Below, piece by piece: positions 3,326 through 64,000 of a DNA stretch of 64,000 nt. Both the position numbers and the translations under genes were made by a program. The stretch spans positions 51,152,001 through 51,216,000 of the forward strand of contig NC_086108.1 of the NCBI RefSeq assembly GCF_963921235.1. The letters run 5' to 3'. The DNA is from Mobula hypostoma (taxonomy: Eukaryota). Every line of letters begins with the position of its first letter. Positions within the stretch are counted from its first letter, which is position 1. Below the pieces are notes generated by a model, which was given only the letters and a program-made list of their open reading frames with translations, did no database searches and was not told the origin of the DNA.

Positions 3326-3384
3326 CTTCTTGACTATTGAGAATCTATGGACTTTAGAAATATTCAAAGTATTAAGGACTAGCG

Positions 3385-5051
3385 AGGTCCTTACTCTTAA
3401 TAATTTCTCCTTTTGCTCCTCCCATTTCCTCCAAACTAAAGGTGTAGCTATGGGCACCCGTATGGGTCCTAGCTATGCCTGCCTTTTTGTTGGGTTTGTG
3501 GAACAATCTATGTTCCGTGCCTATTCTGGTATCTGTCCCCCACTTTTCCTTCGCTATATCGACGACTGCATTGGCGCTGCTTCCTGCACGCATGCAGAAC
3601 TCGTTGACTTTATTAACTTTGCCTCCAACTTTCACCCTGCCCTCAAGTTTACCTGGTCTATTTCCGACACCTCCCTCCCCTTTCTAGATCTTTCTGTCTC
3701 TGTCTCTGGAGACAGCTTATCCACTGATATCTACTATAAGCCTACTGACTCTCACAGCTATCTGGACTATTCCTCTTCTCACCCTGTCTCTTGCAAAAAC
3801 GCCATCCCCTTCTCGCAATTCCTCCGTCTCCGCCGCATCTGCTCTCAGGATGAGGCTTTTCATTCTAGGACGAGGGAGATGTCTTCATTTTTTAAAGAAA
3901 GGGGCTTCCCTTCCTCCACTATCAACTCTGCTCTTAAACGTATCTCCTCCATTTCACGTACATCTGCTCTCACTCCATCCTCCCACCACCCCACTAGGAA
4001 TAGGGTTCCCCTGGTCCTCACCTACCACCCCACCAGCCTCCGGGTCCAACATATTATTCTCCGTAACTTCCGCCACCTCCAACGGGATCCCACCACTAAG
4101 CACATCTTTCCCTCCCCGCCTCTCTCTGCATTCCGCAGGGATCGCTCCCTACACAACTCCCTTGTCCATTCGTCCCCCCATCCCTCCCCACTGATCTCCC
4201 TCCTGGCACTTATCCGTGTAAGCGGAACAAGTGCTACACATGCCCTTACACTTCCTCCCTTACCACCATTCAGGGCCCCAAACAGTCCTTCCAGATGAGG
4301 CATCACTTCACCTGTGAGTCGACTGGGGTGATATACTGCGTCCGGTGCTCCCGATGTGGCCTTTTATATATTGGTGAGACCCGACGCAGACTGGGAGATC
4401 GCTTTGCTGAACATCTACGCTCTGTCCGCCAGAGAAAGCAGGATCTCCCAGTGGCCACACATTTTAATTCCACATCCCATTCCCATTCTGACATGTCTAT
4501 CCACGGCCTCCACTACTGTAAAGATGAAGCCACACTCAGGTTGGAGGAACAACACCTTATATTCCGTCTGGGTAGCCTCCAACCTGATGACATGAACATT
4601 GACTTCTCTAACTTCCGCTAGGCCCCACCTCCCCCTCGTACCCCAGCTGTTACTCATTTTTATGCACACATTCTTTCTCTCACTCTCCTTTTTCTCCCTC
4701 TGTCCCTCTGAATATACCTCTTGCCCATCCTCTGGGTCACCCTCCCCCCCATCTTTCTTCCCGGACCTCCTGTCCCATGATCCTCTCGTATCCCCTTTTG
4801 CCTATCACCTGTCCAGCTCTCGGCTCTATCCCTCCCCCTCCTGTCTTCTCCTATCATTTTGCATCTCCCCCTCCCCCTCCAGCTTTCAAATCCCTTACTC
4901 ACTCTTCCTTCAGTTAGTCCTGACGAAGGGTCTCGGCCTGAAACGTCGACTGCGCCTCTTCCTATAGATGCTGCTTGGCCTGCTGCGTTCACCAGCAACT
5001 TTGATGTATGTTGCTTGAATTTCCAGCATCTGCAGAATTCCTGTTGTTTGC
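3385..5051 (+). mobile_element. Young 5'-truncated Penelope-like retroelement: RT C-terminal half, GIY-YIG endonuclease and 3' tail
   Basis: QTKGVAMGTRMGPSYA and LRYIDD RT motifs; VIYCVRCSRCGLLYIGETRRRLGDRFAEH GIY-YIG motif; stop at 4619-4621; apparently one frameshift near 4175. Confidence 0.93.
4916..4951 (+). ncRNA. Minimal type I hammerhead ribozyme motif in the PLE 3' tail
   Basis: AGTC-CTGACGA-AGG(GTCTCGG)CCT-GAAAC-GTC^GACT: stem I AGTC/GACT, CUGANGA box, stem II, GAAA box, GUC cleavage triplet. Confidence 0.8.
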
Positions 5052-6580
5052 ATATACTTCAAATTCCTCTTTTCATAACCCCATTGAATCAATCATATTA
5101 CTTCTCACTCATCTCAACACTACGGGTACTATCTGAGGTTCTGTAAACTTTCTTCTTAAGAGGACCCATTAACTCTGCGAAAATCAGGTTGGTGTGAGAT
5201 CTCAAGAGGGGAAGTTTCTGGAATGCCTATGAGATGGCTTTTTACAGCAGCTCAAGGTTGAGCTCACAAGGGGACCAGCTATTCTGGATTGGGTGATATG
5301 CAACGAACCAGAAATGATTTGAGAGCTTAAGGTAAAATAACTCTGAGGGGAAAAGCGATCATAATATCGAATTCACCCTGAAATTTGAGAAAGAGAAGCT
5401 AAAGTCAGATGTATCAGTATTATAATCTAGTAAAGGGAATTAGAGGCATTAGAGAGGAGGTGGACAAAATTGATTAGAAAAGAACACTGGCAAGGATATT
5501 GGCAGAGCAGGTGTAGCTGGAATTTCCAGAAGCAATTCAGAAGGCACAGGATATACACATCCCAAAGAGGAAGAAATATTCTAAAGGCAAGATGACATAA
5601 CCATGGCTAAGAAGAGAACATAAAAGCCAAACAGAGGGCATATAATAGAGCAAAAATTGGGGGAAGTTAGAGGATTGCGAAGCTTTTAAAAACCAACAGA
5701 AGGCAACTAAAACAGTCATTAAGGAAAAGATGGAATATGACAGCAAGCTAGCCAATAATATTAAAGAGGATACCAAAATTTTTTCAGATAGATAAAGTGT
5801 AAAAGAGAGGCGAGAGTGGATATCGGACCACTGGAAAACGATGCTGGAGAGGTAGCAATGGGGGACATGGAAATGACGGACAAACTAAATAAGTATTTTG
5901 CATCAGTCTTCACTGTGGAAGACACTAGCAGTATGCTGGAAGTTCAAGAGTGCCAGGGGTCAGAAGCGTGTGAAGTTGCCATTACTGGGGAGAAGGTTTT
6001 CAGGAAACTAAAAGGTCTGAAAGAGGGGTTGAAGAGATTGTGGAGGCATTAGTAATGACCTTTCATGAATCACTAGATTCTGGAATGGTGCTGGAAGACT
6101 GGAAAATTACAAATGCCACTCCACTCTTCAAGAAGGGGAGAGGAAGAAGAAAGGAAACTACAGGCTATTACTCTGACCTCAATGGCTCGTAAGATGTTGT
6201 AGTCAATTCTTAATGATGTGGTTTTGAGGACAGAATGACAGAATAGGTCTTTATCAGCTTGGTTTCCTCAAGGGAAAATCTTGCCTGCTAGAACTGTTGG
6301 AATTATTTGAAAAAAATAACAAGCAGGATAGACAAATGAGAATCAGTGGATGTTGGGTACTTGGATTTTCAGAAGGCCTTTGACAAGGTGCCACACATGA
6401 GGCTGTTTAACAAGTTAAAAGCTAATGGTATTACAGGAAAGATACCAGCATGGATGAAGCAGTGTCTAATTGGCAGGAGGCAAAGGGTGGGAATAAAGAC
6501 AGCCTTTTCTGGTTGGCTGCTGGTGACCAATGCGTTTCCACAGGGGTCTTTTTCTTGGGATTACTTCTTTTTGCAATATA

Positions 6581-10334: not shown

Positions 10335-11135
10335 TGAGCAACACACATAAAAGTTGCTGGTGAATGCAGCAGGCCAGGCAGTATCTCTAGGAAGAGGTGC
10401 AGTCGACGTTTCAGGCCGAGACCCTTCGTCAGGACTAACTGAAGGAAGAGTGAGTAAGGGATTTGAAAGTTGGAGGGGGAGGGGGAGATCCAAAATGATA
10501 GGAGAAGACAGGAGGGGGAGGGATGGAGCCAAGAGCTGGACAGGTGATTGGCAAAAGGGATACGAGAAGATCATGGGACAGGAGGTCCGGGAAGAAAAGC
10601 GGGGGGGACCCAGAGGACGGGCAAGGGGTATATTCAGAGGGACAGAGGGAGAAAAAGGAGAGTGACAGAAAGAATGTGTGTATAAAAATAAGTAACAGAT
10701 GGGGTACGAGGGGGAGGTGGGGCATTAGCGGAAGTTAGAGAAGTCGATGTTCATGCCATCAGGTTGGAGGCTACCCAGACGGAATATAAAGTGTTGTTCC
10801 TCCAACCTGAGTGTGGCTTCATCTTTACAATAGAGGAGGCCGTGGATAGACATGTCAGAATGGGAATGGGATGTGGAATTAAAATGTGTGGCTACTGGGA
10901 GATCCTGCATTCTCTGGCGGACAGAGCGTAGGTGTTCAGCAAAGCGGTCTCCCAGTCTGCGTCGGGTCTCGCCAATATATAAAAGGCCACATCGGGAGCA
11001 CCGGACGCAGTACATCACCCCAGCCGACTCACAGGTGAAGTGTTGCCTCACCTGGAAGGACTGTTTGGGGCCCTGAATGGTGGTAAGGGAGGAAGTGTAA
11101 GGGCACGTGTAGCACTTGTTCCGCTTACACGGATA
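10335..11135 (-). mobile_element. Second young Penelope-like copy (GIY-YIG domain and 3' tail only), same family as 3385-5051
   Basis: ORF 10725..11051 is almost identical to ORF 4295..4621; the tails are collinear. Confidence 0.93.
10401..10436 (-). ncRNA. Minimal type I hammerhead ribozyme motif, sense to the KIFAP3 pre-mRNA
   Basis: Exact reverse complement of 4916-4951. Confidence 0.8.
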
Positions 11136-12229
11136 AAATTTGATAAACTTTTAAACTCCAAACATTTGCAACAATAATAGACTAATTTGTAAAAATTAAT
11201 TCATACACTTTTTGGCACAGGAAGTCAGATTGCCCAGTCTCATATTTTGCGTTCATTCTGAAATAAAATAACGTGGATTAATTCAATCTATAATTAAGAT
11301 CAAATATAATAATAAAATATTTATATCAAGTAATCGGAATCCAAGCTCACAATCCAGTCTGCAATTGAGTGCAAACATAATTATTCATAAAATCCATAGT
11401 TGCAGCCTAGTTACTACAGTAACAAATTTAAGGCTCAAGCAAAACATGCCCCATTTAAATATACTTATTATCACTAGTTACTAACATAACAGCGAAGTAT
11501 TTGGATGTTGAGGCTATACTGAAGAAGCAGTGATAATTCTTCAAACAATTCCCATATTGAGTATCAGATACCACAGTCCCAGGCTGAAACCACTGTGTCT
11601 AGACTCCCTGGCACCTGACTTTACTTATTTACCAGGAATCAGAGGGTTTCTCTACACACAACATTCACACACCTTCCCCTTCAACATCTTTGAATGATTA
11701 CAGCCAAAAAAAAGACTTTCTACAAGATTCACTGTTCTAGCCAATCACTCTGGAACTTGCTGTCTGTATTGATTATCTTGTGAACTTCAGCAGATAACTT
11801 CATGTAAAGGCTGTTTTCGGAAGAAATCTTCAGTATCATTTCAATAATGAAAAAGAAAGAGATAATCAAAGGGAACCATCAGAATAATGGCATTCGTGCT
11901 GGTAAAGTCAAACCAGAAGTATGTTACTTAATCAGTTTAAGGCAATCTTTATATTATTATACAAGCACCCACATGCACTGAATTTGAATAACGATAATTC
12001 TGTGGCTTTTTGCACCAAAAATCAAATGACTTTTAGCAGCGTCATAGCAGAAATCAGTTCATTATCCTTGGATCTGAGAATACTTTTCCCCTAATGGCAG
12101 CCACTGCTGCCACTCTCCTCCATAATAATGTATACAGCTTTGAATATTGTGGGGAGGGGGGACCTACTGGGGGAAGCTGCAGTGCCTGGGTCTCTGGCAC
12201 CGAGTCTAGTGTTGTGGTTTTGGAGTTTG

Positions 12230-12784: not shown

Positions 12785-13900
12785 TTGAACATAGAACAGT
12801 GCAGCATAGGATCAGTCCCTTTGCCCCACAATGTAGTGCCAAACTAATTGAATTTGTAATCTAATGCCCAACTAAAATAATTCCTTCTGCCTGTACAACG
12901 TCAATATTCTTCCATTTCCAAGAGGCTCTTAGATAGACATTAATGTATCTAAGAGCCTCTTGGACACTTCTAGCATATTTATTTCCACTGCCACCCATCA
13001 CTCTGTATAAAAAAAACTTACTGCCTTTCAATTTAAATGCACATCCTCTGGAATTAGACATTTCAACAGTTAGAAAAAGAGACTAGCTATCTACTCTATC
13101 TGTGCCTGTCATGATCATACAAGCCTCTATCAGATTTCCCCTCAACCTCCACTGCTCCAGAGAAAAAACACAAGTTTTCCAACTTCTCCTTAGCACATGC
13201 CTTCAGATCCAGACAGCATCCCAGCAAACTCCTTCTGCACTCTCTCCACAGCCTTGACATCCTTCTGATCATAGGAAGACCATAAATGAATGAAGTACTC
13301 CAGATGAAGTTTTATAAAGATGCAACTTTCAGTGCCTTGACTAATAAAGGATAGCATGTCCTTGCCTTTTTTACCATTCTAATACCTGTGCCACACTTCC
13401 AGTGAGTTATGGACTTAGACCCCAAGATCCCTCCGTGGATCAACACTGTGTATCAATGTTGTACTGTCTCTTTACATTTGATCTCCCAATGTGAAACACT
13501 TCACACTTGGCTGTGTTAAACTTCATTGCCATTTCTCTGCAACTGATCTATATCCCACTTAATTCATTACCAGTCTTCTAGGCTATCTACACCACCAACC
13601 TTTTGTATTGTCTGCTAACTTACGAACCACCCATCTAAGCTTTTATCCACTATCTTCTTCTATGGGCAAGCATTCTGAATCTAAACAGCACAATTCACAG
13701 TGGACCCCAGACACTTAATCTTCTGGATGAGCTGCCTATGAGAGACCTTACTAAAGTCCCATGTAAACAATATCCACTGCTCAACTTTCATCAACCATCA
13801 GCGTCACTTCTTCAAAAAGCTCAGTCAAGTTAGTAACCCATGATTTGCCCCGCACAAAGCCACGGTGATTGGTGCTCAATAGGCCATGATTTTCTAAATT
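12785..13900 (-). mobile_element. Decayed CR1-type LINE 3' fragment
   Basis: Resembles the reverse complement of the other CR1 3' ends in the window. Confidence 0.7.
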
Positions 13901-16899: not shown

Positions 16900-17720
16900 C
16901 GTTTTGTGAATTTAGAGGAAGCCACACAGAACCACCAAATACAGTACTCGAGACATGGTTAAGGATATACAGGTGAATCTCTGCTTCACCTGGAAGCGTT
17001 GTTTAGATCTCTGGACAAGTATTGCCCTGCAATAGTTGCAAGGAAAAGTTCTAGGGGAACAGGGAGGGTGGGACAGAGGAATAGAGGGATAAGTAGACCG
17101 GGGTTCATAGCGTGGCTCCTGTGGAAAGCTGGAAATAGTCGCAGTATGGAGGCGGGGTGGGGGAAGAGAAAGTTGTGACTGGTGGTGGGGTTCTGATGGA
17201 ACTGCAGGAAATGGCGAAGGATGATATTCCAGATGCAGAGACTAGTGGGATGAACAGCAAGGACCACGGGTCTCTCAACTCGGTATGCGGGAGGGGGTGA
17301 TAGTGAAATGGAGAAAATGCAAGTAGAATCTCCAACCAAAGTAAAAAGGAATCAATGTTTTCTGAGAAAGGATAACATTTCAGAAGTCCTGGAATGGAAA
17401 GACTCATCTTTCTTCCCCACCCCACCACCCACCAATTCATTTCCACATTTTACCCACGAACCTCAGCCTCAACTTTCCTTCTGTCCTTCCTGGCTCCATC
17501 CACCAATCACCCACCACGTAACAGCCCATTTCTCACTCTTCTCTCATTTCTCTTTCCCAAAATGCCAACCACCCCTTTGAAATTTCCTCAAGCTTCAGAG
17601 ACAACACCACCACCAAATACACTATCTCCTTCTCTCCCCTTTCAAATTTTGAAAGGAACTCTTTGCATCTCCCTGGTTTGCTCTTCTATCTCCACCATCA
17701 CTCCCCAAGGAATGACATTT
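16900..17720. mobile_element. Old Penelope-like remnants in both orientations
   Basis: HPTSLCIWNIILRHFLQFHQNPTTSH (minus strand) is homologous to HPTSLRVQHIILRNFRHLQRDPTTKH in the young PLE. Confidence 0.65.
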
Positions 17721-18360: not shown

Positions 18361-18714
18361 TCTTTGTGGTTTCTTCGCCATCAGAGAGACCAAAAGCAGA
18401 ACAGTTGACTGCTTTACAAGGCAGTTGTGTTCAGTCCCCGGAGGCATCCAAACTTTCCCTTGCCTGCCATTTTAATTGTCTATCCCAATTTGATCTATCT
18501 GTGACCTCATGCATTGTTATAATGATGCCTGGCCCACATTTTAGAAACAGCACCTCAGCTTCTAGCTAGGAACATTGCAACTTTCTGAAAACAACATTGA
18601 ATTCTTCAATTTCAGGTAACTCGCTTTCACTTTTTATCTCAATATTAGCCAGCTACCACCGGAAAGGTTGTACAGAAGCTAGAACTTCTACAGCACCAAC
18701 TCCCACCCCCCATC

Positions 18715-23700: not shown

Positions 23701-24009
23701 CTTCCTAATCGTTTCAGTCTATGACTTGGATTCAGCTCCATAAGATGAATACAATTATTTGGATGGCTAAAAGGCATTGTAGAAATAAATGTTCTCACCC
23801 TGTCAACAAATTCCATTTATATACTTTTTAAAAAATTAATCCCATAAGAGGCTGCAAGGGAGAAATTGGAGCCCACTTGAGCATTGAAGTGATGCAAAAA
23901 AATGCTTTTTGAGAAAATCTTTAAAGCTAAAAAGAAGGATCTCTGGGGACAGATAAGAAGTCAGAAACCAATAGGGAAATTGAGAAACAAGGGAATTCAT
24001 ATGGTCCCA

Positions 24010-24850
24010 ACAAGAGAAAATTTGCATATTCTGGAAATCTGAGCAACACGCACAAAATGCTGGAGGAACTCAGCTAGCCAGGTAGCATCTATGGAAAAGA
24101 GTACAGTCGACGATTCTGACCAAAAAGAGCTGGGAAGTTGGTTGGTGAGAGACAGAAGGCTACGGAAGAAAGATAAAGGGGGGAGAAGAACCAGAGGGAG
24201 GCACTGGGCAGGCAAGAGGATAAGGTTTGAGAGGGAAAAGGGGATGGGGATATCCCACCACCAAGAAGATCTTCCCCGCCCCCCTTCCCCACTTTCTGCT
24301 TTCCGCAGGGATTGCTCCCTATGTGACTCCCTTGTCCACTCGTCCCTCCCCCACTGATCTCCCTCCTGGCACTCATCCTTGCAAGGGGAACAAGTACTAC
24401 ACCTGCCCCTACATTTTCTCCCTCACTACCATTCAGGGCCCTAAACAGTCCTTCCAGGTGAGGCAACACTTCACCTGTGAGTCTACTGGGGTCACCTACT
24501 GTATCTGGTGCTTCTGTGTGGCTGCCTGTATATCGGTAAGACTCAAGGTAGATTGAGAGACCACTTCATCAAACATCTATGCTCTGTCTGCCAGAACAAG
24601 TGGGATCTTTCAGTGACTACCCATTTTAATTACCATTCCAATACATCTATCCATGGCCTCCTCCACTGCTGTGATGTCGTGATGAGACTAACTTAGGTTA
24701 GAAGATCAACACCTTATATTCCATTTGGGTAGCCTCCGACCTGATGGCATGAACATTGACTTCTCAAACTTTTGGTAATGGCCCCCAACCCCTCCACCCC
24801 TCTCCATTTCCCATCCCCTTTTCTCTCTTCCAACTTATCTCAACTGATAC
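24010..24850 (+). mobile_element. Older Penelope-like copy: inverted tail segment (24010-~24245, minus) followed by a plus-strand GIY-YIG remnant
   Basis: TDLPPGTHPCKGNKYYTCPY...QGPKQSFQVRQHFTCESTGVTYC; the upstream segment is the reverse complement of the PLE tail, a typical PLE inverted arrangement. Confidence 0.85.
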
Positions 24851-24860
24851 TTTTTTTCCA

Positions 24861-24924
24861 TACCCTATGAATTTGAGCAACACACAAACAGCATCTTTTG
24901 TGTGTTGCTCAAATTCATAGGGTA
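24861..24924. repeat. Perfect 28-bp inverted repeat with an 8-nt spacer at the end of the PLE copy
   Basis: TACCCTATGAATTTGAGCAACACACAAA-cagcatct-TTTGTGTGTTGCTCAAATTCATAGGGTA. Confidence 0.95.
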
Positions 24925-28549: not shown

Positions 28550-29600
28550 CAGCAGCACTGTCTCCCGCACCATCCCCAACCTCATCAACTCTGGAGATCA
28601 CCCAATTCATAGTTCTTTCACCCTGCACTGCTCATTTCTACCTCCTAGCCTAGATGCACAAATCTGACTGTCTGGCTAAGACCACTGTCTGCCTTCCCGA
28701 CTGAACTCGTGCTCACACACTTCAACATTTTATCACCCTTGGTTTAATCCCTTCCCACCTACATTCACGATACTCCCGATGTTCTCAATCTCCTACAACT
28801 TTTAATTCCTTGGCCCTGACCAGCTCATTTTCACTATGGATGTCTAATCCCTATATATATCTAATCCCCATCAAGAAGGCCTTAAAGCTCCTGCTGCTTT
28901 CTCAGTCAAAAGAGCCAACCAGTTCCCCTCCAATACCACCCTCCTCCACATTGAAGATCTGATCCTCACCCTCAACAATTTCTCCTTCAGCTCCAACTTT
29001 CTCCAAACTCAAGGGGTAGCCCTAGGCACCCACAGCTATGCCTGTCTTTTCATTGTCTACGTGGAACAGTTCAAGTTCCAAATTTTCCCTGGTAATGCTC
29101 CCCAACTCTTCCTGTTCTACACTGATGACCGCATTGATGGTGCTTTTATGTATCCAAACAGAGCTCATCAATTTCATCATATTTGCCTTCAACTTACATG
29201 CCTTCAAATTCACTTGGCCCATTTCTGACACCTCTCTTCCCTTTCTCGATCTCTATCTTCTCCATCTTTGAAGGCAAACTGTCCACCGACATCTTTTATC
29301 AGCCTAAAGATTCCCATAATCATCCTGACTATGCCTGTTCCCACCCTGTCTTCTGTAAAAAAAAACACTATTCCCTTTTCTCAGTTCCTTCATCTCTGCT
29401 GTATGTGTTCCTTGGATGAGGCTTTCCTTTCTAAGACATCAGAGAGGTCCTCTTGCTTCAAAGAATGTGGCTTCTCTTCCTCCACCATTGACACTGCCCC
29501 TCACTCACATCTCCATTTCTCGGACATCTGCACACATCCAATCTTCCCGCCGCCTTAACAGGAACTGAGTTCCACTTGTCTTCACCTATCACCCCTTTGT
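28550..29600 (+). mobile_element. Decayed Penelope-like RT fragment
   Basis: Collinear with 3385-4030 (CTCAACAATTTCTCCTT, CAAACTCAAGGGGTAGC, FTWPISDTSLPFLDL). Confidence 0.85.
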
Positions 29601-34984: not shown

Positions 34985-35800
34985 GCTCCCTGAAAGTGGC
35001 AACACCTTGGAAAGGGCAGTAAAGAAGGCATATGCAATGCAGATGTTGATCAGAAACACTATAAAAGTTGGGTAGACATTTTGCAGCTGTATAAAATTTT
35101 GGTGACGTCACATTTGGAGTATTACAATTCTGGTCACCATATTACTAAGGCTTTGGAGAGGGTGTAGAAGAGTTTCAAAAATCAAAAACACAAGAAATTC
35201 TACAGATGCTGGAAACCTTGACCAACAACAACAGGAACTCAGCAAATCAGGCAGCATCTATGGAGAGAGGGAAAAAAAGTCAAAATTTCAGGCCTAGAGC
35301 CTTTATCAGCCCTAAACATCCACCATTTATTCACCTCCATAAATGCTGTGTGACTTGTTGAATTCCTCCAGTATTTTGTCTGTACTGCTGTAGAAGAGTT
35401 TCACCAGGATGTTGCCTGAATGAGACGGTATTAGGTATCAGGAGAGATTTTTTTGAAGCATGGGAGGGTGAAGGGTGATCTGATAAATATATAGTGTAGA
35501 CAGAGTTTTATTCATGGGTAAAAATGTTAACTACTTGCGGGCATAGGTTTAAGACAAGAGAGGGACGTGTTCAAGAAGGCAAGCTTTTTGCACAAAGTAG
35601 GTGCCTGGAATAAGCTGCTCGGGGAGAAGGTAGAAGCTAATATAAGAGCAATGGTTAAAAGGCATACAGAGAGACACATGAACAGTTAGGGAATAAAGGG
35701 ATATCAATTATGTGGAGGCAGCTGCGATTAGTTTAGTTTGGCATCATGGTCCATGCAGATATGATGGGCTGAAGGGCTTGCCCCCATGCTATATTGTTCT
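34985..35800 (+). mobile_element. Decayed CR1 3' fragment carrying a nested insertion at 35178-35388
   Basis: CR1 sequence GGCTTTGGAGAGGGTGTAGAAGAGTTTCA|CCAGGATGTTGCCTG is split by the insert. Confidence 0.8.
35178..35388. mobile_element. Older fold-back insertion of PLE tail sequence, 211 bp, with 15-bp target-site duplication
   Basis: TGTAGAAGAGTTTCA at 35163-35177 and 35389-35403. The left part is a minus-strand PLE tail and the right part a plus-strand PLE tail. Confidence 0.8.
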
Positions 35801-47836: not shown

Positions 47837-47972
47837 TCAAGTCTAATGCAACAATGGTGTGTAATCAAATATAACAAAAATATTAATACAAATAAGCATC
47901 AACTGGATTAGTTAAGTTAAAAGGCAGTAAAACCATCTAATTTTCAAAATCTGACCTACCTACTGAAATCCA

Positions 47973-48320
47973 GTGGCACAGTGAACCTGCTGGTATTGCT
48001 GCTGTTTCACAGCTCCAGCAACCAGAGTTTGATTCTGATATCTGGTGCTGTATTTTGTGAAGTTTGCATTCTCCCTGGGTTTGACCCAGGACTCAGCATA
48101 TCCTCTCATCTCAAAAACGTGCAAGTTGTTAGGTTATCAGACTACACTAAATTACCCTTTGGACAGGTGGCAAATGTAAAAATCTATAATGTCTTAATAG
48201 GGACGTGAGAGAGAATAGATAGGTGTGAGGGAAATAATTTTGTGTGGGGGGGGTGAAATTACTCTAGTTCAGCATAGACTTAATGAGCCAAATGACTTCC
48301 CTCACTGCCATCAGGAAATA
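47973..48320 (+). mobile_element. Decayed V-SINE/HE1-like tRNA-derived SINE
   Basis: GTGGCACAGTG...TCACAGCTCCAGC.ACC...TTTGATTCTG...AGTTTGCATTCTCCC, with a CR1-like tail. Confidence 0.55.
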
Positions 48321-49659
48321 TATTACATACTGCAGTTCCAACTTTTTCCTTAAACACTGGTGTACAAAACCTCAATAGCAAAATTCATCTGCTGACCTTA
48401 ACTCAGTATTCATCTGAAGTAACTGACCCATCCATTGTTTGTAAAATGATTTTGACATTTTTTAAAATAAAGTTTTGCTAGGCAAATAAGCAACCCTCTA
48501 TCATAACAGACACTTGGCTGCAAGATGAACATAGCTGGGATCTAAATATTTCAAGTACTTGATACCATTTGTTGATGATAAACAACATAGTGCAGTATTG
48601 AAAAAGAAGCTTGGCTCATTAGTTCAGGAAAAAATAGCAAGGGTCAGAAAACACTAATGGCAGCATCCTCCTTCTAGCAGCTATGCTGTAGACGGAGTAA
48701 AAATGAAGAAAAGGCTCGAAGGTGCTAAGAAATGTTGAGGTTTGGGAGAATTTTAGAAATGATGAAAAATGTTGGCAGGAAGGGGTAAACCTGAGAATAA
48801 ACTAGCAATGAGGAATTGAAGAAAATTAGTATTGGCCAACTTTCTTCCCTCTTGTTAGTTCAAAATCATGGCCTTCCCTTCCGCTACACTTGAAGGTCTG
48901 TAATGATTCAAGAAGGTAGCTCACCTTCATCTTTTAAAGGACAATTAGGGATGGACAATTAAATGTTGGCAAGTACAAAACTGAAAAATTTGAGTCAATC
49001 TATTTCACTGCACAAAACAGAAAGGTAGAATGTTATTAATGGGAAACTGACCAAGAGAACAATCTCTGAAAAATCAGCATTTTCCAATCCAACCTCGTAT
49101 GCAGGTTACTGAAAGCTAACATTCAAGTTCAACAAGGACAGGGAAGGCAAATAGCCTTCATTACAAAAGGATTTTGTACCAGAATTAAGACATCTAACCC
49201 AATTATACTGGTTCTTACCAGCAGATGGTGAATCTTTCTGGATATTAAGGAAATCGGGGTATACAAGAGCAATGCAGTAAAATAGCAGTGAGAATGATCA
49301 GCAATGACCTTAATTTACAGCAAACCAGTGTGAAAGGGCTGAATTGACTATACCTGCTCTTAATTTTTTTTAAATTCCTATGCTCTAGTGACAAGTAGCC
49401 TCTATGGAAATGTAAATAGAGAAGACAAACAAAAGGGAGAAAAAAAAATGCTAAAACTGAGATTAAAACATAATTTTTGAAATTCCTGAATAAAAATATT
49501 CTTGAAATATCTTATGGGTTAGGCAGCAACTGTGCAGAGAACAAAACTAAGTTAATGTCACTGATTGATTACCTTCAATCAGAACTCGATAGTTCCAACT
49601 GTTTCTACGTGGGAGAACCCATAACAGTGTTGATCTACAGAGGGATCCAAAATGACAGT

Positions 49660-50440
49660 TGCTGAAAGTGGCCACTCAAATTAATGGGGTGGTAAAGAAG
49701 GTGTATGGCATTGGGCAACACAGTAGTGTAGAGATTAGCATAACGCTATCACAGTACCAGCAAACCAGGTTTAATTCTGCAGCTGTCTGTAAGGAGTTTG
49801 TATGATGCAAGGGTGTCATTAGGGCAGCGCAGGTCTGTCGGGACAGGAAAGTCAGTTATTATGCTGTATCCCTAAATGAAATAAAATGCTTGCCTTTTAT
49901 TAGTCGAGGTATTGAGTTCAAGAATTGGAAAATTATCTTGCAGCTTTGTAAAAACTCTTGTTAGGCCCATCTGAAGTATTGCAATTAGTTCTGGTCATTC
50001 CATTATAGGAAGGATGTGGAAGCTTTGAAGAAAGTGCAGAAGTAGTTTACCAGACCGCTGCCTAGTTTAGATTAGAGGGCATGTGCTAGGTTGGACAAAT
50101 TAGTGTTGTTTTCTCTTTGGACTGCGGAGACTGAGAGAAGACTTAACAGAAGTTTATAAAATTATGAGAGGTAGAGACAGCTATTATCTTTTTCCCAGGA
50201 TTGAACTGTCTAATACTGGAGGGCATGCACTTAAGGTGAAAGGAAAGTTGGTGCTGGGACTGAGCTGCCAGAGATGTAGTTTTGGCGAAAATGATAGAGC
50301 TGTTCAAGAGGCTCTTAGATAGGTACATGAATATGCAGCGCAGAAAGGTTATGGACCACGTGGAGGCAGGAAGAGATTAGGTGTCATTAGCTTCATTTGT
50401 TAACACAATATCATGGGCCTGTTCTTGTACTGTTCTATGA
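49660..50440 (+). mobile_element. Decayed CR1 3' fragment with a nested short SINE (~49712-49885)
   Basis: CR1 text GTGTATGGCAT|...|GCTTGCCTTTTATTAGTCGAGG is split by a SINE-like head. Confidence 0.7.
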
Positions 50441-50858
50441 GCTTAGGAGAAAAAAAAACAGCTTGGAAGAGCAACTTAAAGAACAGCTCCACTCAAGTCT
50501 ATGAGATAAGCTAAGTTTCCAGTTGCTGACAGTTTTAACTCCTCAATCAACTCTGACCTTTCTAGTCTCTTATGCTGTTCCATCAAACCTTTATGCGAGC
50601 CTGAGGACAGCATTTCATCTTGTACCTAATCACATAATAATCAACAGAACTCAACTATAAATTCAAATGTAGAAAGCCAATCTTTCCAGTAATTCTGATT
50701 AATTCTGAATCAAGGACATCAACCTGTAACAGTAGATCAGCTTTTTTCTCCAGAGATGCTCCATGACTTGTTAAATATTCCCAGCATCTACAGTTTTTAA
50801 TGCAAGAGCTTTTACAAAGTAAGACTTCAGAACTAAATATACCGTAAAAACATATATA

Positions 50859-51963
50859 CAGTGGATAACGGCTAATTGGGCCATCAGTTAATTGGGGCAG
50901 CTGCATATTTGGGACAACTCTTATAAATTTAAAAACTCTTACTAATTTAAAAAATTAATCAGGATGCCTTTCCTTTATTTGGGACATTATGCTGCTTATT
51001 TAGGACAGGAGACTGTTGCTGAACAGTTTAAAAATAATGCTAGTCGCATGCACTTGTGCAGCCGTTAACACACTACACCGGGCTTAAAGAGAACAGTCTT
51101 TAAATAGTGCCAGCTGCATGTGTTTATATTCAAAAAAGTCATTTTTGTCACAGATAGGTGGTGAGAAATAATCAGCACAACATTTCAAAACTGTTTTGCA
51201 CACTGTGGCTTCAAGCATTCAGAATTGGAAATGGCAGAAATGGGCGCAAGTGAAAATGAAATGATTTCACTACTTCAACAAGTTAGGAACTATGAAGAAT
51301 TTGAAGGAATTGACAATCATCTTAAACGTGATCTTTGGTCCCCATGGACACTCAGCTCTCATCTGTGGCTCCAAGTAGTTGTTTGCATGCGACAGCAGCC
51401 ACACCCCAGTACAATATTCAACAGACAGGCTAAACAAGGTGATGGTAGCCGGCAGGTCTCATAAGCCAGTGAAATGGGTCACACCTGTCTGAGCATGCAC
51501 AGCTCCTGCAATCTGGGCGGTTAAGGTCTATAGCGAAACCCCATGGTCAGTAAAGTGGTTCTGCAACACTATGTGGAGAGCGAAGTGCACGACGAAGCAC
51601 AGAAGTAGTCATGGTCGTCCACTGCAACCAGGGAAGGCCCCAGTCGTGACATCTACTTGTACCATTGGACCCAGAATTCTGAGGTTGAGAAAGTGGAAGT
51701 GCCTCAGTGCTTTTCCACTTTAAGAATTCTCCCGCACAGGTTTACTGTGGTCGGATATGACAGACAACCACCAGTAGTATTGGTCATGCTCCAATTTGTT
51801 CTTTATTTCGTCTAAAGATGTAATTTGTTACTCAGTTAAATGGTAGCTTGTCTTTTCTATACCTTTTTAACTAATCCCATGAAACTTTGGTTAATTGGGG
51901 CAGCCACTTGATTGGGCCAAAATGTACCAGTTCCAATGCATCCCAATCGTTTGGAATCCACTG
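50859..51963. mobile_element. Tigger/pogo-like non-autonomous DNA transposon with an unrelated GC-richer internal insert (~51327-51772)
   Basis: TA|CAGTGGAT... and ...ATCCACTG|TA termini, with repeated TAATTGGG motifs near both ends. Confidence 0.7.
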
Positions 51964-52964
51964 TATAATTGCTTTCACAATAAGACACCACAGCATACAA
52001 GGAATAATAAATAACTTAGGGTAAAAAGAGTCTGAAGAAATTAAAAATAAATCAGAGCAAAAGTACCAACCCAAGAAAAATTCCTTGGATTTAGAGCACG
52101 CATTCTAAGATTTTAAAAAGAGATGCCTGCAAAAACAGATGGTGATTTTCCAAAATCCATACTTTATAGAATTCTGAAAAGGACCCAATATAAAGGAAAA
52201 GTGCAAATGTTTGTACACCTCGTATGGAATTAGGGAAAGTATACAGGGAACTCAAAGTATGTAAGCCTTTGCTCAAAACCAGAATTTACAATGAATGAAC
52301 TGATAACAGAGCATTCGTAAAAGGTTAACGTGATTATATGAAATCAACAGTGTTACAAAGAGAAAATAATATTTAACAAATTCTATAGGGATGAAACTAA
52401 CTGGAGAAGACAGATGTTCAAGTCGATAGTGTATTTGCAGAAGTCAGTTGAAGAATACAGAATGTCTGAAAAAAGATTATTAAATATTGGTGGTTACAAA
52501 GACAAGGTGTGCTCATACAATTAATTTGAAGCTAACATGCAGATATGTAAAGTATTAATGGAAAGTTGGCCTTGATCGAGTACAAGACCATGGAAGTCTT
52601 ACTGCAACAGCACAGGAGTTGGGAGACACTCTACCTGCAATACTGCATATAGTTTTGATCTCCCTACTTAAGGACTAATACGTCTGTTCTAAAGCCTATG
52701 AATCTAGGTTCACAAGGTTGAATCATTTAATTAGGAAGTGGTCCAATGAGGAAAGCTTGAGCAGAACAGGACTGTGCTGCCTGGAGATTAGAAAAACACT
52801 TAAGGGAAGACACAAAATTATGAAGGAATCCAGAGTGAGGATGTTTCATTGTTAGCAGAATCTAAATCACAAGGGACCATGGAGTCAATCTATGGAGTTA
52901 GCGGTTTAAAACACACATGATAAAGAAATACATCTCTCAAGGTACTGAGAATGCTCAAAATTCT

Positions 52965-54900
52965 GAATCAGAACCCGGTTAATATCACTGCCGTATGTTA
53001 TGAAATTTGTTATTTCACGGCAGCAGTACATTGCAATACATAATAATAAAACTACAGATTACAATAAGTATATATTAAAAAATAAATGAAGTAATTAGCA
53101 CAAAAAGACAAAAAAAATAGCGAGGTAGTGTTCAAGGGTTCACTGTCCAGGAAATCTGATGGCGGATGGGAAGGAGCTGTTCGTGAAATGTTGAGTATGT
53201 GTTCAGCCTCCTGTACTCCCTCCTTTATGGTAGCAATGAGAAAAGGGCTAACCCTTCCTGAAGTTCATAATCAATTCCTTTGTCTTAATAATGTTGAGTG
53301 CAAGGTTTTCGTTGCAACACTACTTAACCAGCTGTTCTACCTTGTCCCCATGCGCTTCCTCGTCATCATCTGAGATTCTGTCAATAATAGTTGTGTCATC
53401 AGACAACTTATAGATGCAGTTTGAGTTGTGCCTAGCCACATAGCCATGGGTGTAGAGTAGAGCAGAGCAGTGGGCTAAGCACACATCCTTGAGGTGCAGT
53501 AGTGTTGATTGTCAGCAAGATGTTATTTCCGACCTGCACTGACTGTGGTCTCCCAGTGAGGAAGTCAAGGATTCAGTTGCAGGGTGGGATATAGAGACAC
53601 AGGTTTTGGAGCTTGTTTTGGAGCTTACTGAGGATATGATGGTGTTGAACACTAAGGTGTAATAAATAAACAGCAGCCTGATGTAGGTATTGCTATTGTC
53701 TAGGTCCAAGACCAACAGAAGAGCTAGTGAGGATGCATATGTTGTAGACCTATTGTGGCAATAGGCAAATTGCAGTAGGTCCAGGATCTTGCTTTGGAAG
53801 GAGTTGATTCTAACTATGACCAACCTCTCTAAGCATTTCAAATGCAAGAAGCCAATTAATTCTTACAAGACAAAACCTAACATCATAAATGGCTGTGATG
53901 CTTCACTCCCAGATGAGCACAATGCTTTTTATGCATACTTGAAAAGAGAGAATAAAACATGTGTGCTGTATCTGGTGACCATGTAATTTCTGATTCAGAG
54001 ACCAAAGTCAAACATCTTTCAAAAGGTTGAACCCTCTTAAAGCATCAGGCCCTGATGGTAGGGCATTGAGCTCATCAGGGAGTGAAGCATCACTGCTAGT
54101 CATTATGTTAGGTTTCAGCCTGCAAACCCTGCCAGAGCTGGTATGCATCCAGTTCCATCTCTAACTTCAATCGAAATTGTTTTCTCCCTCTTACAATAGC
54201 CTTCCATAAGTCATACCTGAACCTCCTCTATAGCTCTGATCACCAGTCTTAAATGCCACAGAGCTAGCTCTCAGCAGACTACACGTCTCCTGGATCATCC
54301 ACAGCTTTTGGTCGGGTATGTCCAGTATATTCTCGAAGGCACACACTCATCAATACAGGTCTTGATGAAGTCAGTGACAACTGTCATATATTAAACGCAA
54401 ACAACAGGAATTCTGCAGATGCTGGAAATTCAAGCAACATACATCAAAGTTGCTGGTGAACGCAGCAGGCCAAGCAGCATCTATAGGAAGAGGTGCAGTC
54501 GACGTTTCAGGTTAAGGGTCTTGGCCTGAAACGTCGACTGCACCTCTTCCTATAGATGCTGCTTGGCCTGCTGCGTTCACCAGCAACTTTGATGTATGTT
54601 ACTGTCATATATTAATTCACATTCAAAGATGAGATGGAACAGCATGATAAGTGTTCTTGATGGTGGTATAACAGTTTTCAAGTGTGCTGGCTCCTCTAGT
54701 TGTTCAGAGACTTCATCAAGCTGGCCTGAAATCTCCCACAATGATAAAGAAGGTATCAGGGTTTTCTGACTGCTGATCATGGTGCTCAGCTTCTCCAGTG
54801 CCAGCCAGATGCTGGCCTAAACTGGAATGTACACCGCTACCAGATTTACAGCAGAAAAGACCCTAAACAGATAAAACACCACTAGATGTTCCAGGTCGGG
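52965..54900 (-). mobile_element. Rearranged, decayed Rex1/Babar LINE (internal inversion ~53840-54070; hosts the fold-back insertion)
   Basis: KCLERLV...LDLLQFAYCHNRST...LDNSNTYIRLLFI.Y...FNTI on minus; DASLPDEHNAFYA on plus. Confidence 0.75.
54395..54600. mobile_element. Young fold-back insertion of PLE tail sequence, 206 bp, with perfect 76-bp inverted arms and 15-bp TSD
   Basis: Arms 54436-54511 and 54525-54600 are exact reverse complements; ACTGTCATATATTAA at 54380-54394 and 54601-54615; near-identical to 4937-5051. Confidence 0.92.
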
Positions 54901-55069
54901 GAACTCAGTGGTTAAAGGGTCAGGCAGCATCAGAGCAAATCAACAGTTGACATTGCAGGTCGAGACCCTTCAGTGTGCATAAAATAGCAGGAAAAGGCCA
55001 AAAAAGACTGGTTGGCCTATTCAACAAACCAAATACTCAAAACATGACTGAGAGATTTCACAAATATAT

Positions 55070-55495
55070 CTCCCTGAAAGCGGCTCTACAGGTTGATAGG
55101 GTGGTAAAGGGTGGCATTTATTAGTTAAGGAATTGAGTTAAAGATTTGAGAAGTTATGTTGCATCTTTATAAAACTAATTAGCCGCATCTGGAGCATTGC
55201 ATTCATTTTGGTTACCCCATTATAGGAAGGATATCAAGACTTTGGAGAGGGTGCAAAAGAGGTTTAACCAAGATGTTAGCTGGATTAGAGGGCACATGCT
55301 AAAAGGAAAGTATGGATAAACTTGGGTTATTTTCTCTGGAGTGGTGGAGGCTGAGATGAGTCTAATAGAATCTTATAAGATGATGAGAGGAAAAGATAAA
55401 GAGTGGAAAGCCAGCATCTTTTTCCCAAGGATGAAATGTCTAATAACAGAGATGAGAGAGAGTAAGTTCAAAGGAGATGAGTGGGTCAGTGAGTG
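55070..55495 (+). mobile_element. Decayed CR1 3' fragment
   Basis: Collinear with 1570-1990. Confidence 0.75.
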
Positions 55496-55552
55496 TGAAA
55501 TGGAGACACCTCTTTTTCCCTTATTAGGAAGGGGGAGAGGGTGGGGGGGAGG

Positions 55553-55627
55553 GGAGACACAGAGACAGAGAGAGACACAGAAAGAGACAGAGAGACAGAC
55601 AGAGAATGAGAGAGAGAGAGAGAGACA
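55553..55627 (+). repeat. (GA)n/(GACA)n low-complexity microsatellite
   Basis: Direct inspection. Confidence 0.85.
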
Positions 55628-57134
55628 AAAAGACAATGAATGAGTATGAATTACCGGGTGAACGAGTAGTCTTTGGGGTACTGCAAGTCTGTGTCTTTAT
55701 TGATTCTTTGTTGTACATTTGAGTGCTCAGTGGGGGGTGCTGATGCTTTTTCACTGGTGGGGGAGGGGGATTGTCACTTTGCTGCTGTGTGGGGGGGGAG
55801 CTGAGGGAGTGCTTTGGAGTTCTAACATTTAATTGTCATTCATTCTTTGGGGCACTTCTCTGTTTTCATGGATGTTTGCGAAGAAAAAGAATTTCAGGAT
55901 GTATATTGTATACATTTCTCCAACATTAAATGTACCTATTGAAAGCTATTGAATTTTTTTTTAAATCACTCAAAAGGTTTTAAAAATAGTCATAACATTG
56001 AGCAAAAAACAGAAGGATATGGACATTGTATAGGGAAAAAAGAATTAGCTTAGTTGGGCATTTGATCACTAATTTAATTAGTTCAGAATACTGAAATAAG
56101 GAAAAGATATCTGCATTTATACTTAAGAGAAAACAGCTTACAAATATTAACACAAATTTAAATATCACCTACCAATAGTGATCCGAAAGAAATCGCATTG
56201 CACTTATCATTTTATCTTATCATCTATAAAAACAAAGTCAAATATATACCTCATCCAAATGAGCGCTAAGATCACACCTCTAAAGATGATCCATACTCAA
56301 CTTTTAATTCAAAATCGGAAATGGAATTTGCTATGCATAAATTTGATTCATCAACAATGCATTAAATGATATTGACCCACGAATCTTATTTGAAACAAGT
56401 TCTTAAAGGAGCTAAGTGAAATGAATGATGAAAAAATCTGGAAGAGGAATTCAAGAACATGGGAGTTTGATATCCTTTAAGTTACGGCAGCGAGGATAAA
56501 AAGAACAGATGCATAAAGAGTAAGGAATTTAGTGTTCAGAGGAGCAATATCTAGATGTGAGGGTTAGAAGGACATTGATTTACTTATTTATTATGACACA
56601 GGAAGCCTTCTGACTAATCCAGTTTATGCCAGCAGAGAAATTCCCCTTCTCTATGTTTACTTGTGGCCCTGCAACTTAATGTCTCTTACATCAACTCCCC
56701 TTTTTCATTCTTTTGCCATCTCCCTAAGCAGTAATTTCCAATGGTCAATTAAACTACCAGTGATTAACCCATCATCAGACCCTAGTCCCAAGAGCCAGGA
56801 GGCTGCAGCACTAACAGCTGTACATCACTGTGCCATTCTGAAGAACTAAATAAACTTTTTTTAGGTTTATGATGTGATACAATAAAGTTCTTAACTGAAG
56901 ATGATGGCAACAAAAACCATCCACCCTTGGTTGCAAAGATTTTAGGTCAAATGATTTACAATTGTCAGCATTTTCCAGGGTTTTTAAAATTAAGTGATTT
57001 ATACTGTATATTGAGATAATTACATTCAAAAGTTCTGAAGTTTATAAGCAATATTTACTAAGAGTAAAATATTGGTATTGCTCATTCCAGAGTTCACAGA
57101 TACACTGTAACAATTTCACATGTAATCAATCTCA

Positions 57135-57302
<168 letters not shown>

Positions 57303-62757: not shown

Positions 62758-64000
62758 CAGGTTTCCCCCGCCATTCGAAGGTAGAGCGTTCCTATGAAAC
62801 GGTTCGTAAGCTGGAATGTCGTAAAGCGAAGAAGCAATTACAATTTATTTATATGGGAAAATTTTGTGAGCGTTCGCAGACCCAAAATAACCTACCAAAT
62901 CATGCCAAATAACACATAAAACCTAAAATAACAGTAACATATAGTAAAAGCAGGAATATGATAAATACATAGCCTATATAAAATAGAAATACTTTTCCAC
63001 AATCATTACTGCACTGTTCTCTGTAGCAAAAATCTCACGCAAGCGCCGTCAGCAGAAAATCTCATGCAAGCGCTGTTGGCAAAAACACGGTGCAAGCGCT
63101 CTCAGTAACCTTTAAGCTATGAAGCTGCCAAATCATACCAAAGAAGACGTAAAAATACACGGTCTATATAAAGTAGAAATAATGTACATACAGTGTAGTA
63201 TCACTTACAGGAATTGGGAAGACACCTTGCCGAGCACACTGATGATGGTGTGTTAGGCTGAGTCGTCGCAGGTTGGGGTGGTGCAGTGGCTCCCACCCTC
63301 CAGGCCACCAACCGATACCGATCCATGAAGCACGCAGGGGTGCAGCGGTAGCCGGGAGGCACACAGCGCATCTTTAAGAAAAAAACCGAAACAAACATGC
63401 TAATTAATTAGGTGACACCCAGCATATAATTGTCGGGCAGTACCTAATTAATTAGCTTGTTTATTTCGGTTTTTTTCTTAAAGATGTGCTGTGTGCCTCC
63501 CGGCTACCACTGCATTCTCCACGAATCGGTATCTGTCTGTGGCCTGGGGGCTGGGGTGTCATCTCATCGTCATCTGTTTCCATTAGGGCAGGCAGGTCAT
63601 CTTCTATGTCTGCCCGCCTTGATGTCGAAGGTCGAGGTTCGTCGTCTGCTGTGGCTGATGTGGAAGGCTTGCTTGACTGCTGAGCCTCGCGCATTTTTCT
63701 ATCATACAGTTCTTTGTAAGGACTCAAACCATCTTGCAAATATCTCCTAAACCTATGTACCCTTTCAAACTTAAAGTCGTACTTTATCATTGCAGCGAAA
63801 ATCTCACGCAGTTGCTTCACGTTCAGTTCGCTACTGCATTTGGTTTTGATTGTTATCCTTTTTTCTTCCAATTGCATCAGCTCTTCATCTATCAGATCTT
63901 GGTCATGGGATGCCAAAACCTCTTCAACATCATCTTCATCAGCTTCCACGAGCCAAACTCACTTTGTCCTTACTTCGTTCACCATGATCGAAACGCTTAA
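62758..64000 (-). mobile_element. Tigger/pogo-family DNA transposon, 3' part; continues off the right edge
   Basis: TA|CAGGTTTCCCCCG terminus; acidic transposase C-terminus EADEDDVEEVLASHDQDLIDEELMQLEE (ORF 63461..63949). Confidence 0.8.
63341..63514. repeat. Internal 73-bp inverted repeat (4 mismatches, 28-nt spacer) in the Tigger-like element
   Basis: Arms 63341-63413 and 63442-63514 compared base by base. Confidence 0.9.

Follow-up and report, generated by a model that had tools for sequence, protein, structure and literature searches.

The 206-bp insert at 54395-54600 of the window, by which we mean the whole 64,000-nt stretch of Mobula hypostoma DNA analysed here, is an insertion of an EN+ Penelope-like element (PLE): its arms match a PLE, it is an inverted head-to-head 5′-truncated copy, it carries a tail at one end only and it lies within a target-site duplication (TSD). 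It adds one more example to an insertion pattern that is already known, being an ordinary PLE stub and not a new kind of element. With a probability of roughly 80%, we believe that a young and very abundant EN+ PLE of the Neptune/Nematis build left it behind in a single integration event and that it was dead on arrival. An earlier reading from the sequence alone had left the choice between a PLE integration product with extreme truncation and inversion and a self-propagating hairpin family. The 41-nt one-sided tail, the family-wide ends of the arms and the TSD support the first of these. The presence of the tail on one arm only is the most diagnostic feature of the insert, and it was overlooked in that reading.

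All the basic dimensions reported earlier were present when the insert was recomputed, namely a length of 206 bp, a perfect stem of 76 bp, a loop of 13 nt and an exact 15-bp direct repeat. The stem, the longest perfect one, pairs 54436-54511 with 54525-54600, and its arms are identical to each other at 76 of 76 positions. The repeat, ACTGTCATATATTAA, occupies 54380-54394 (plus strand, 80% A+T) and 54601-54615 (plus strand). It cannot be extended, and no further copy was found on either strand of the whole 64-kb window. The probability of such a 15-mer repeat by chance is about 2e-7 (composition-based, 11x11 registers), and in a control a repeat of at least 12 bp at a spacing of 211-231 occurred at 6 of 20000 random sites.

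From left to right, the insert begins with the PLE tail (54395-54435, minus strand), which matches copy A, a PLE of the same young subfamily, up to position 5051, the long 3′ end of the family. The reverse arm of the stem (54436-54511, minus strand) corresponds to copy A 4937-5012; its 5′ end falls within hammerhead stem II, on the 3′ strand. Two filler bases, TT, lie at the junction (54512-54513); they would be either untemplated or what a 9-nt deletion in the centre left of a once perfect palindrome. A part found only in the forward arm (54514-54524, plus strand; copy A 4926-4936) makes up most of the loop, and the forward arm of the stem (54525-54600, plus strand) runs to the short 3′ end of the family, without the tail. 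The arms are unequal, since the 41-nt 3′ extension of the reverse arm is absent from the forward arm; the reverse arm measures 117 nt with the tail and the forward arm 87 nt without it. Both arms had been described as near-identical to 4937-5051. This holds for the left arm, which is identical to that segment at 114 of 115 positions, but not for the right arm, which matches 4926-5012 (85/87) and lacks the last ~40 nt.

Copy A (3381-5051, plus strand), the reference for the arm comparison, is 5′-truncated and comprises the end of the reverse transcriptase (RT), a Cys linker, a GIY-YIG endonuclease, a 3′ UTR, a minimal hammerhead and the full tail, terminating at the long family end. GIY-YIG was recognised in its frame by Pfam (E 1.2e-05), and a CxxC lies between VIY and YIG of the endonuclease. 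An RT-like open frame contains AMG and YIDD, which we take to be RT motifs; this fragment has 0 Pfam and 0 PDB matches. The linker reads CKRNKCYTC (CX4CxxC). A CX2-5CxxC linker between RT and endonuclease is described for the Neptune and Nematis clades (PMC8557442), and the sequence points to a parent of the Neptune/Nematis build.

The minimal type I hammerhead of copy A (4916-4951) was mapped by hand to the description in PMC4209133. It consists of the 5′ strand of stem I (4916-4919), CUGACGA (4920-4926) followed by an extra A, stem II (4928-4939), GAAAC-GUC (4940-4947) and the 3′ strand of stem I (4948-4951). Rfam gave no match at gathering score in the 64-kb window and, in E-value mode on 4850-5100, two matches at chance level only. 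A chance-level match in the tail region (4993-5051) was to the UnaL2 LINE 3′ stem-loop (E 2.4). The fold of the copy A 3′ end was no more stable than those of shuffled sequences (z -0.99). In the predicted fold, the tail (4993-5051) forms two small stem-loops; the short family end is located in the stem of the first, and the base of the second coincides with the long end.

Only the 3′ half of this hammerhead is retained in the insert. The fold-back point had been placed within stem II, with CUGANGA lost from each arm. The break is indeed inside stem II in the reverse (left) arm, but the forward (right) arm keeps stem II complete and begins at the last base of CUGANGA. Thus 54514-54524 contains this last base, the extra A and the 5′ strand and loop of stem II, and GAAAC-GUC-GACU follows at 54528-54539. 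CUGANG and the 5′ strand of stem I are absent from both arms. Because CUGANG is lacking, neither arm is self-cleaving, and an active ribozyme was rejected as the core is absent. The arms extend beyond the hammerhead cut site by 11 and 22 nt; therefore, the template RNA was uncut.

Contigs of 4 of 24 public runs (X1, X5, X9 and X10) were compared with 53900-55100. X1 is from organism A (0.80 of words matched) and may be the assembly's own source sample. X5 is from organism B (0.53 of words matched), with a divergence of ~1.3-2% as judged by word share. The results refer to the portions listed, which were 15 of 462 joints, 24 of 2097 loose-end rows and 32 of 108220 pieces. Among the rows listed, X1 had loose ends at 54393, 54398 and 54399 (163, 130 and 154 contigs) and at 54603 (83 contigs), and X5 at 54393-54399 (142, 114, 137 and 147 contigs) and at 54603 (60 contigs). 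These clusters correspond to copy A 5049-5055 and 5015, a few bases from the two ends of the insert, and the sequences flanking the loose ends are diverse and A/T-rich. The family has two family-wide 3′ ends, one long and one short, and the insert shares both. The parent PLE is young and very abundant, and the genome is very PLE-rich. At 54473/54563 both arms have the base that is in the minority within the family, the other base accounting for ~70% of depth; this sharing fits one source locus.

The right junction is covered by X1 record 6 (54580-54726), which has no differences, is at flank depth and has 21 letters in the arm (the tool rule is 31). Among the pieces listed, none was a contig across the insert centre or the left junction, and none from organisms C and D spanned the insert site. 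X5 record 23 aligned from 54601, at the right TSD copy, with no differences, and its 58 preceding letters are not on the arm. These 58 letters extend back to 54322 and would overlap by 30 nt with X5 record 19, which covers the left flank. By this overlap arithmetic, organism B, a close relative, appears to have an empty site with a single 15-mer. Together with the exactness of the repeat, this apparent site bears out the earlier proposal that the 15-bp repeat is a TSD.

These features are best explained if the GIY-YIG endonuclease nicked both strands, 15 nt apart, in an A+T-rich target and uncleaved PLE RNA was then reverse-transcribed from both of the 3′ ends set free. The top-strand 3′ end, extended rightward from the far start site, would give the 117-nt reverse arm with the tail, and the bottom-strand 3′ end, extended leftward from the near start site, would give the 87-nt forward arm without it. 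Both reverse transcriptions would end early, close to the hammerhead. Head-to-head joining of the cDNAs would then add the two filler bases, and the TSD would result once the gaps were filled. We infer double priming of both target strands; the orientation of each arm is that of a cDNA extended from one TSD copy towards the centre. Such priming copies the same 76 nt two times, which needs two templates or the re-use of one. In L1 twin priming, which Ostertag and Kazazian are said to have described in 2001, both target strands reportedly prime cDNA, the products are joined head to head and a TSD results. The L1 cDNAs, however, reportedly copy different parts of one RNA, whereas the insert has the same 76 nt twice.

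A typical PLE unit contains pLTRs, an adjacent inverted pLTR, an optional 31-bp tail on one inverted pLTR and TSDs of 8-10 bp (PMC3846280). PLE integration has been generalised as giving an inverted 5′-truncated copy with a tail at one end and a TSD (PMC8557442), and inverted pLTRs and short 3′ extensions are named as peculiarities of PLEs (PMC8969392). Our insert shares with complex EN+ PLE insertions (PMC3846280; PMC8557442) the head-to-head inversion, the tail at one end, the TSD, the A+T-rich target and heavy 5′ truncation. It differs in that it has neither an ORF nor a direct pLTR and both halves are <120 nt. Its TSD is 15 bp, compared with 8-10 bp in the Adineta examples, and its tail is 41 nt, compared with 30-40 in published EN+ PLEs.

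Purified PLE protein nicks and extends both target strands and favours ATT/AT-rich DNA (PMC11167929). According to the same source, RT starts at two internal sites whose spacing equals the tail, unprocessed RNA is used, hammerhead cleavage is dispensable and the protein is a predicted dimer. The insert resembles PAc (Poseidon, Anolis; PMC11167929) in having 3′ ends ~40 nt apart, probable priming from both strands, an uncleaved template and an AT-rich target. However, PAc belongs to another clade, Poseidon, whereas the Cys linker here points to Neptune/Nematis, and the available portion of the PAc account describes no fold-back products. RNA to +172, beyond the named 111-118 start site, is required (PMC11167929). 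By analogy, an internal start of RT would leave the RNA further downstream uncopied, and the stub would lack the RNA needed by the protein. The insert is probably dead on arrival, unable to move again.

Minimal hammerheads that occur in pairs, one on each strand and separated by 100-700 bp, have been read as truncated PLEs (PMC4209133). The insert is likewise a short inverted pair from the PLE hammerhead region, but its two hammerheads are both incomplete, without CUGANG. It shares with non-LTR retrozymes (bioRxiv 10.64898/2026.07.22.740005) a short, non-coding sequence from the PLE hammerhead region; retrozymes, however, are head-to-tail with complete type I hammerheads, whereas the insert is inverted and has none complete. 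A retrozyme was rejected because no hammerhead is complete and the arrangement is not tandem. A DNA-transposon MITE was rejected because the arms are unequal retroelement 3′ ends and the inverted repeats are not terminal on the left. In a search of titles, with most subscription papers, Repbase and Dfam outside its scope, no paper dedicated to ORF-less fold-back PLE stubs was found.

The window holds further PLE copies. Copy B (10337-11136, minus strand) ends near the short family end. Copy C (~24008-24924) is a larger complex PLE in which a piece of the endonuclease in forward orientation comes after a long-tail reverse arm. It ends in a perfect 28-bp hairpin (24861-24888 and 24897-24924), whose arms include the short PLE end together with ~14 bp of flanking, non-PLE sequence in inverted form; this hairpin possibly represents an inverted target duplication. 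Around copies A, B and C no TSD of >8 bp was found, only unconvincing matches of 6-8 bp. Copy D (35163-35403) is an older mini fold-back, a 211-bp insert within an exact 15-bp repeat (35163-35177 and 35389-35403). It has the same build as the insert at 54395-54600, a long-tail reverse arm and a short forward arm, and differs from it in junction and in subfamily. The reverse arm of copy D retains the catalytic core, and its loop is in antisense. Diverged PLE coding fragments with 59-69% identity to copy A are located at 28963-29595, 17141-17408 and 18365-18618, and a diverged piece of the hammerhead region from an older PLE subfamily lies 300 bp to the right of the insert (54918-54996, minus strand). 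Other inverted repeats in the window are a MITE-like palindrome at 63292-63555 (73-bp arms at 95%, outer 50-bp arms at 78%), a 19-bp perfect inverted repeat with a 10-nt spacer at 12917-12964 and a 53-bp inverted repeat (87%) at 53873-54115, in old repeat-rich flank directly left of the insert.

We also examined how arms are joined in other copies. Among the 15 joints listed (462 in total), 14 connect a reverse arm to a forward arm; the 15th lies outside the arms and was dropped. We read the 14 as fold-back junctions of other genomic copies. All 14 differ from one another and none equals the junction of the insert. Their arm 5′ ends range from 4937 to 5019 for reverse arms and from 4926 or less to 4979 for forward arms. 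Depth is 100-190 at several listed junctions, compared with ~10 for single-copy flank, and four listed junctions are present in runs of at least two species. With such depth and such occurrence, some junctions may be multi-copy or recurrent. Junctions near that of the insert would score as small gaps and thus be hidden. One such junction, close to that of the insert but not identical with it, is in X5 record 22 (depth 14, with 5 other letters and 5 gaps). The exact junction of the insert had no match in metagenome contigs, and patterns of the family had none in viral or metagenome contigs, collections from which the host is evidently absent, so that these negatives carry no information.

A first alternative would add to double priming rather than replace it. 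The hammerhead region may be a preferred stall point of PLE RT, for example on templates paired through dimeric hammerheads, so that the modal product is ~200 bp. We consider this possible but doubtful. All four arm 5′ ends of the insert and copy D lie in or at the hammerhead, and minimal PLE hammerheads are described as built to work as dimers (PMC4209133). Within 4916-4951, however, only 2 reverse and 2 forward ends are found among the 14 listed joints, and never both in one joint, a count biased by 3 forward ends and 1 reverse end being cut off by the reference edge and by the hiding of near-by junctions.

It is less likely that the insert arose from one strand by snap-back, with a single round of TPRT from the far start, folding of the cDNA at copy A 4926, self-copying to the short end, resolution by the endonuclease and a later 9-nt deletion that left a 13-nt loop where the palindrome had been perfect. 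The arm identity of 76/76 would follow, and the filler TT is what the end of the reverse arm would be had it reached 4926, although a two-base match arises by chance in ~1/16 of cases. Self-priming has been proposed for head-to-head palindromes (PMC3846280), the tail has been ascribed to endonuclease resolution (PMC8557442) and the antisense loop of copy D is as snap-back predicts. In the insert, by contrast, the present loop is sense sequence missing from the reverse arm, and a second event is needed to account for it. Other listed junctions have arm 5′ ends up to at least 90 nt apart, which also speaks against snap-back, as does the account in PMC11167929 under which both ends are RT start sites.

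A broader proposal strikes us as improbable. Here fold-backs of ~200 bp would form a hammerhead-bounded product class, made when a PLE dimer primes both strands on hammerhead-paired RNAs and stalls; some of the hairpins would be re-mobilised as a non-autonomous family and would supply introns with long perfect dsRNA for small-RNA silencing of the parent. At slightly longer odds still is a non-autonomous hairpin family, itself transcribed and re-mobilised by PLE proteins. One 64-kb window does contain two elements of similar size (206 and 211 bp), both flanked by a 15-bp TSD and both joined within the hammerhead. The junction in X5 record 22 and the high depths among the joints listed could be read in the same way, and non-autonomous PLE derivatives are known (PMC8557442; bioRxiv 10.64898/2026.07.22.740005). 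Those derivatives, however, are head-to-tail. The insert has no promoter or direct pLTR, the required RNA past the RT start sites (PMC11167929) would, by analogy, be absent from the inserted copy and a perfect helix would lock 76 of 117 sense nucleotides. Since the 14 listed junctions all differ from each other and from that of the insert, and copy D has another junction and belongs to another subfamily, the earlier suggestion of a self-propagating family is not supported by the joints listed. A fold-back artefact of assembly or library, for which the lack of a listed contig across the centre might be cited, is scarcely credible and was rejected in view of the exact TSD, the tail on one arm, the family-wide ends, the read-derived contig over the right junction and the older, diverged twin (copy D) within the window.

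Seven minus-strand open frames match Pfam KAP; therefore, the host is a KIFAP3-like gene transcribed on the minus strand. The insert lies in its intron at 47837-57135 (minus strand), the low boundary of which is approximate, being set by where the next exon's open frame ends. The exons on either side cover Pfam KAP profile positions 162-195 and 195-237, which places the intron between positions 195 and 196 of the profile, and the insert is ~2.5 kb downstream of the splice donor at 57135. For the plus strand of the insert, the predicted fold has -169 kcal/mol (z = -24), a stability that none of 200 shuffles reached, and the minus strand folds too. Thus, the long perfect dsRNA stem foreseen in KIFAP3 pre-mRNA is predicted to form on either strand, and it might serve as a substrate for ADAR or for Drosha/Dicer, as the earlier reading suggested. 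There is no sign of function in this young, lineage-restricted, deep-intronic stub, which has very many similar copies.

The single insertion is a neutral-looking intronic stub and carries little weight alone. It is a usable presence/absence marker for two close species. The later steps of PLE integration are called unvalidated in PMC11167929 and undefined in PMC8557442, and as a class, minimal fold-backs are clean footprints of PLE integration.
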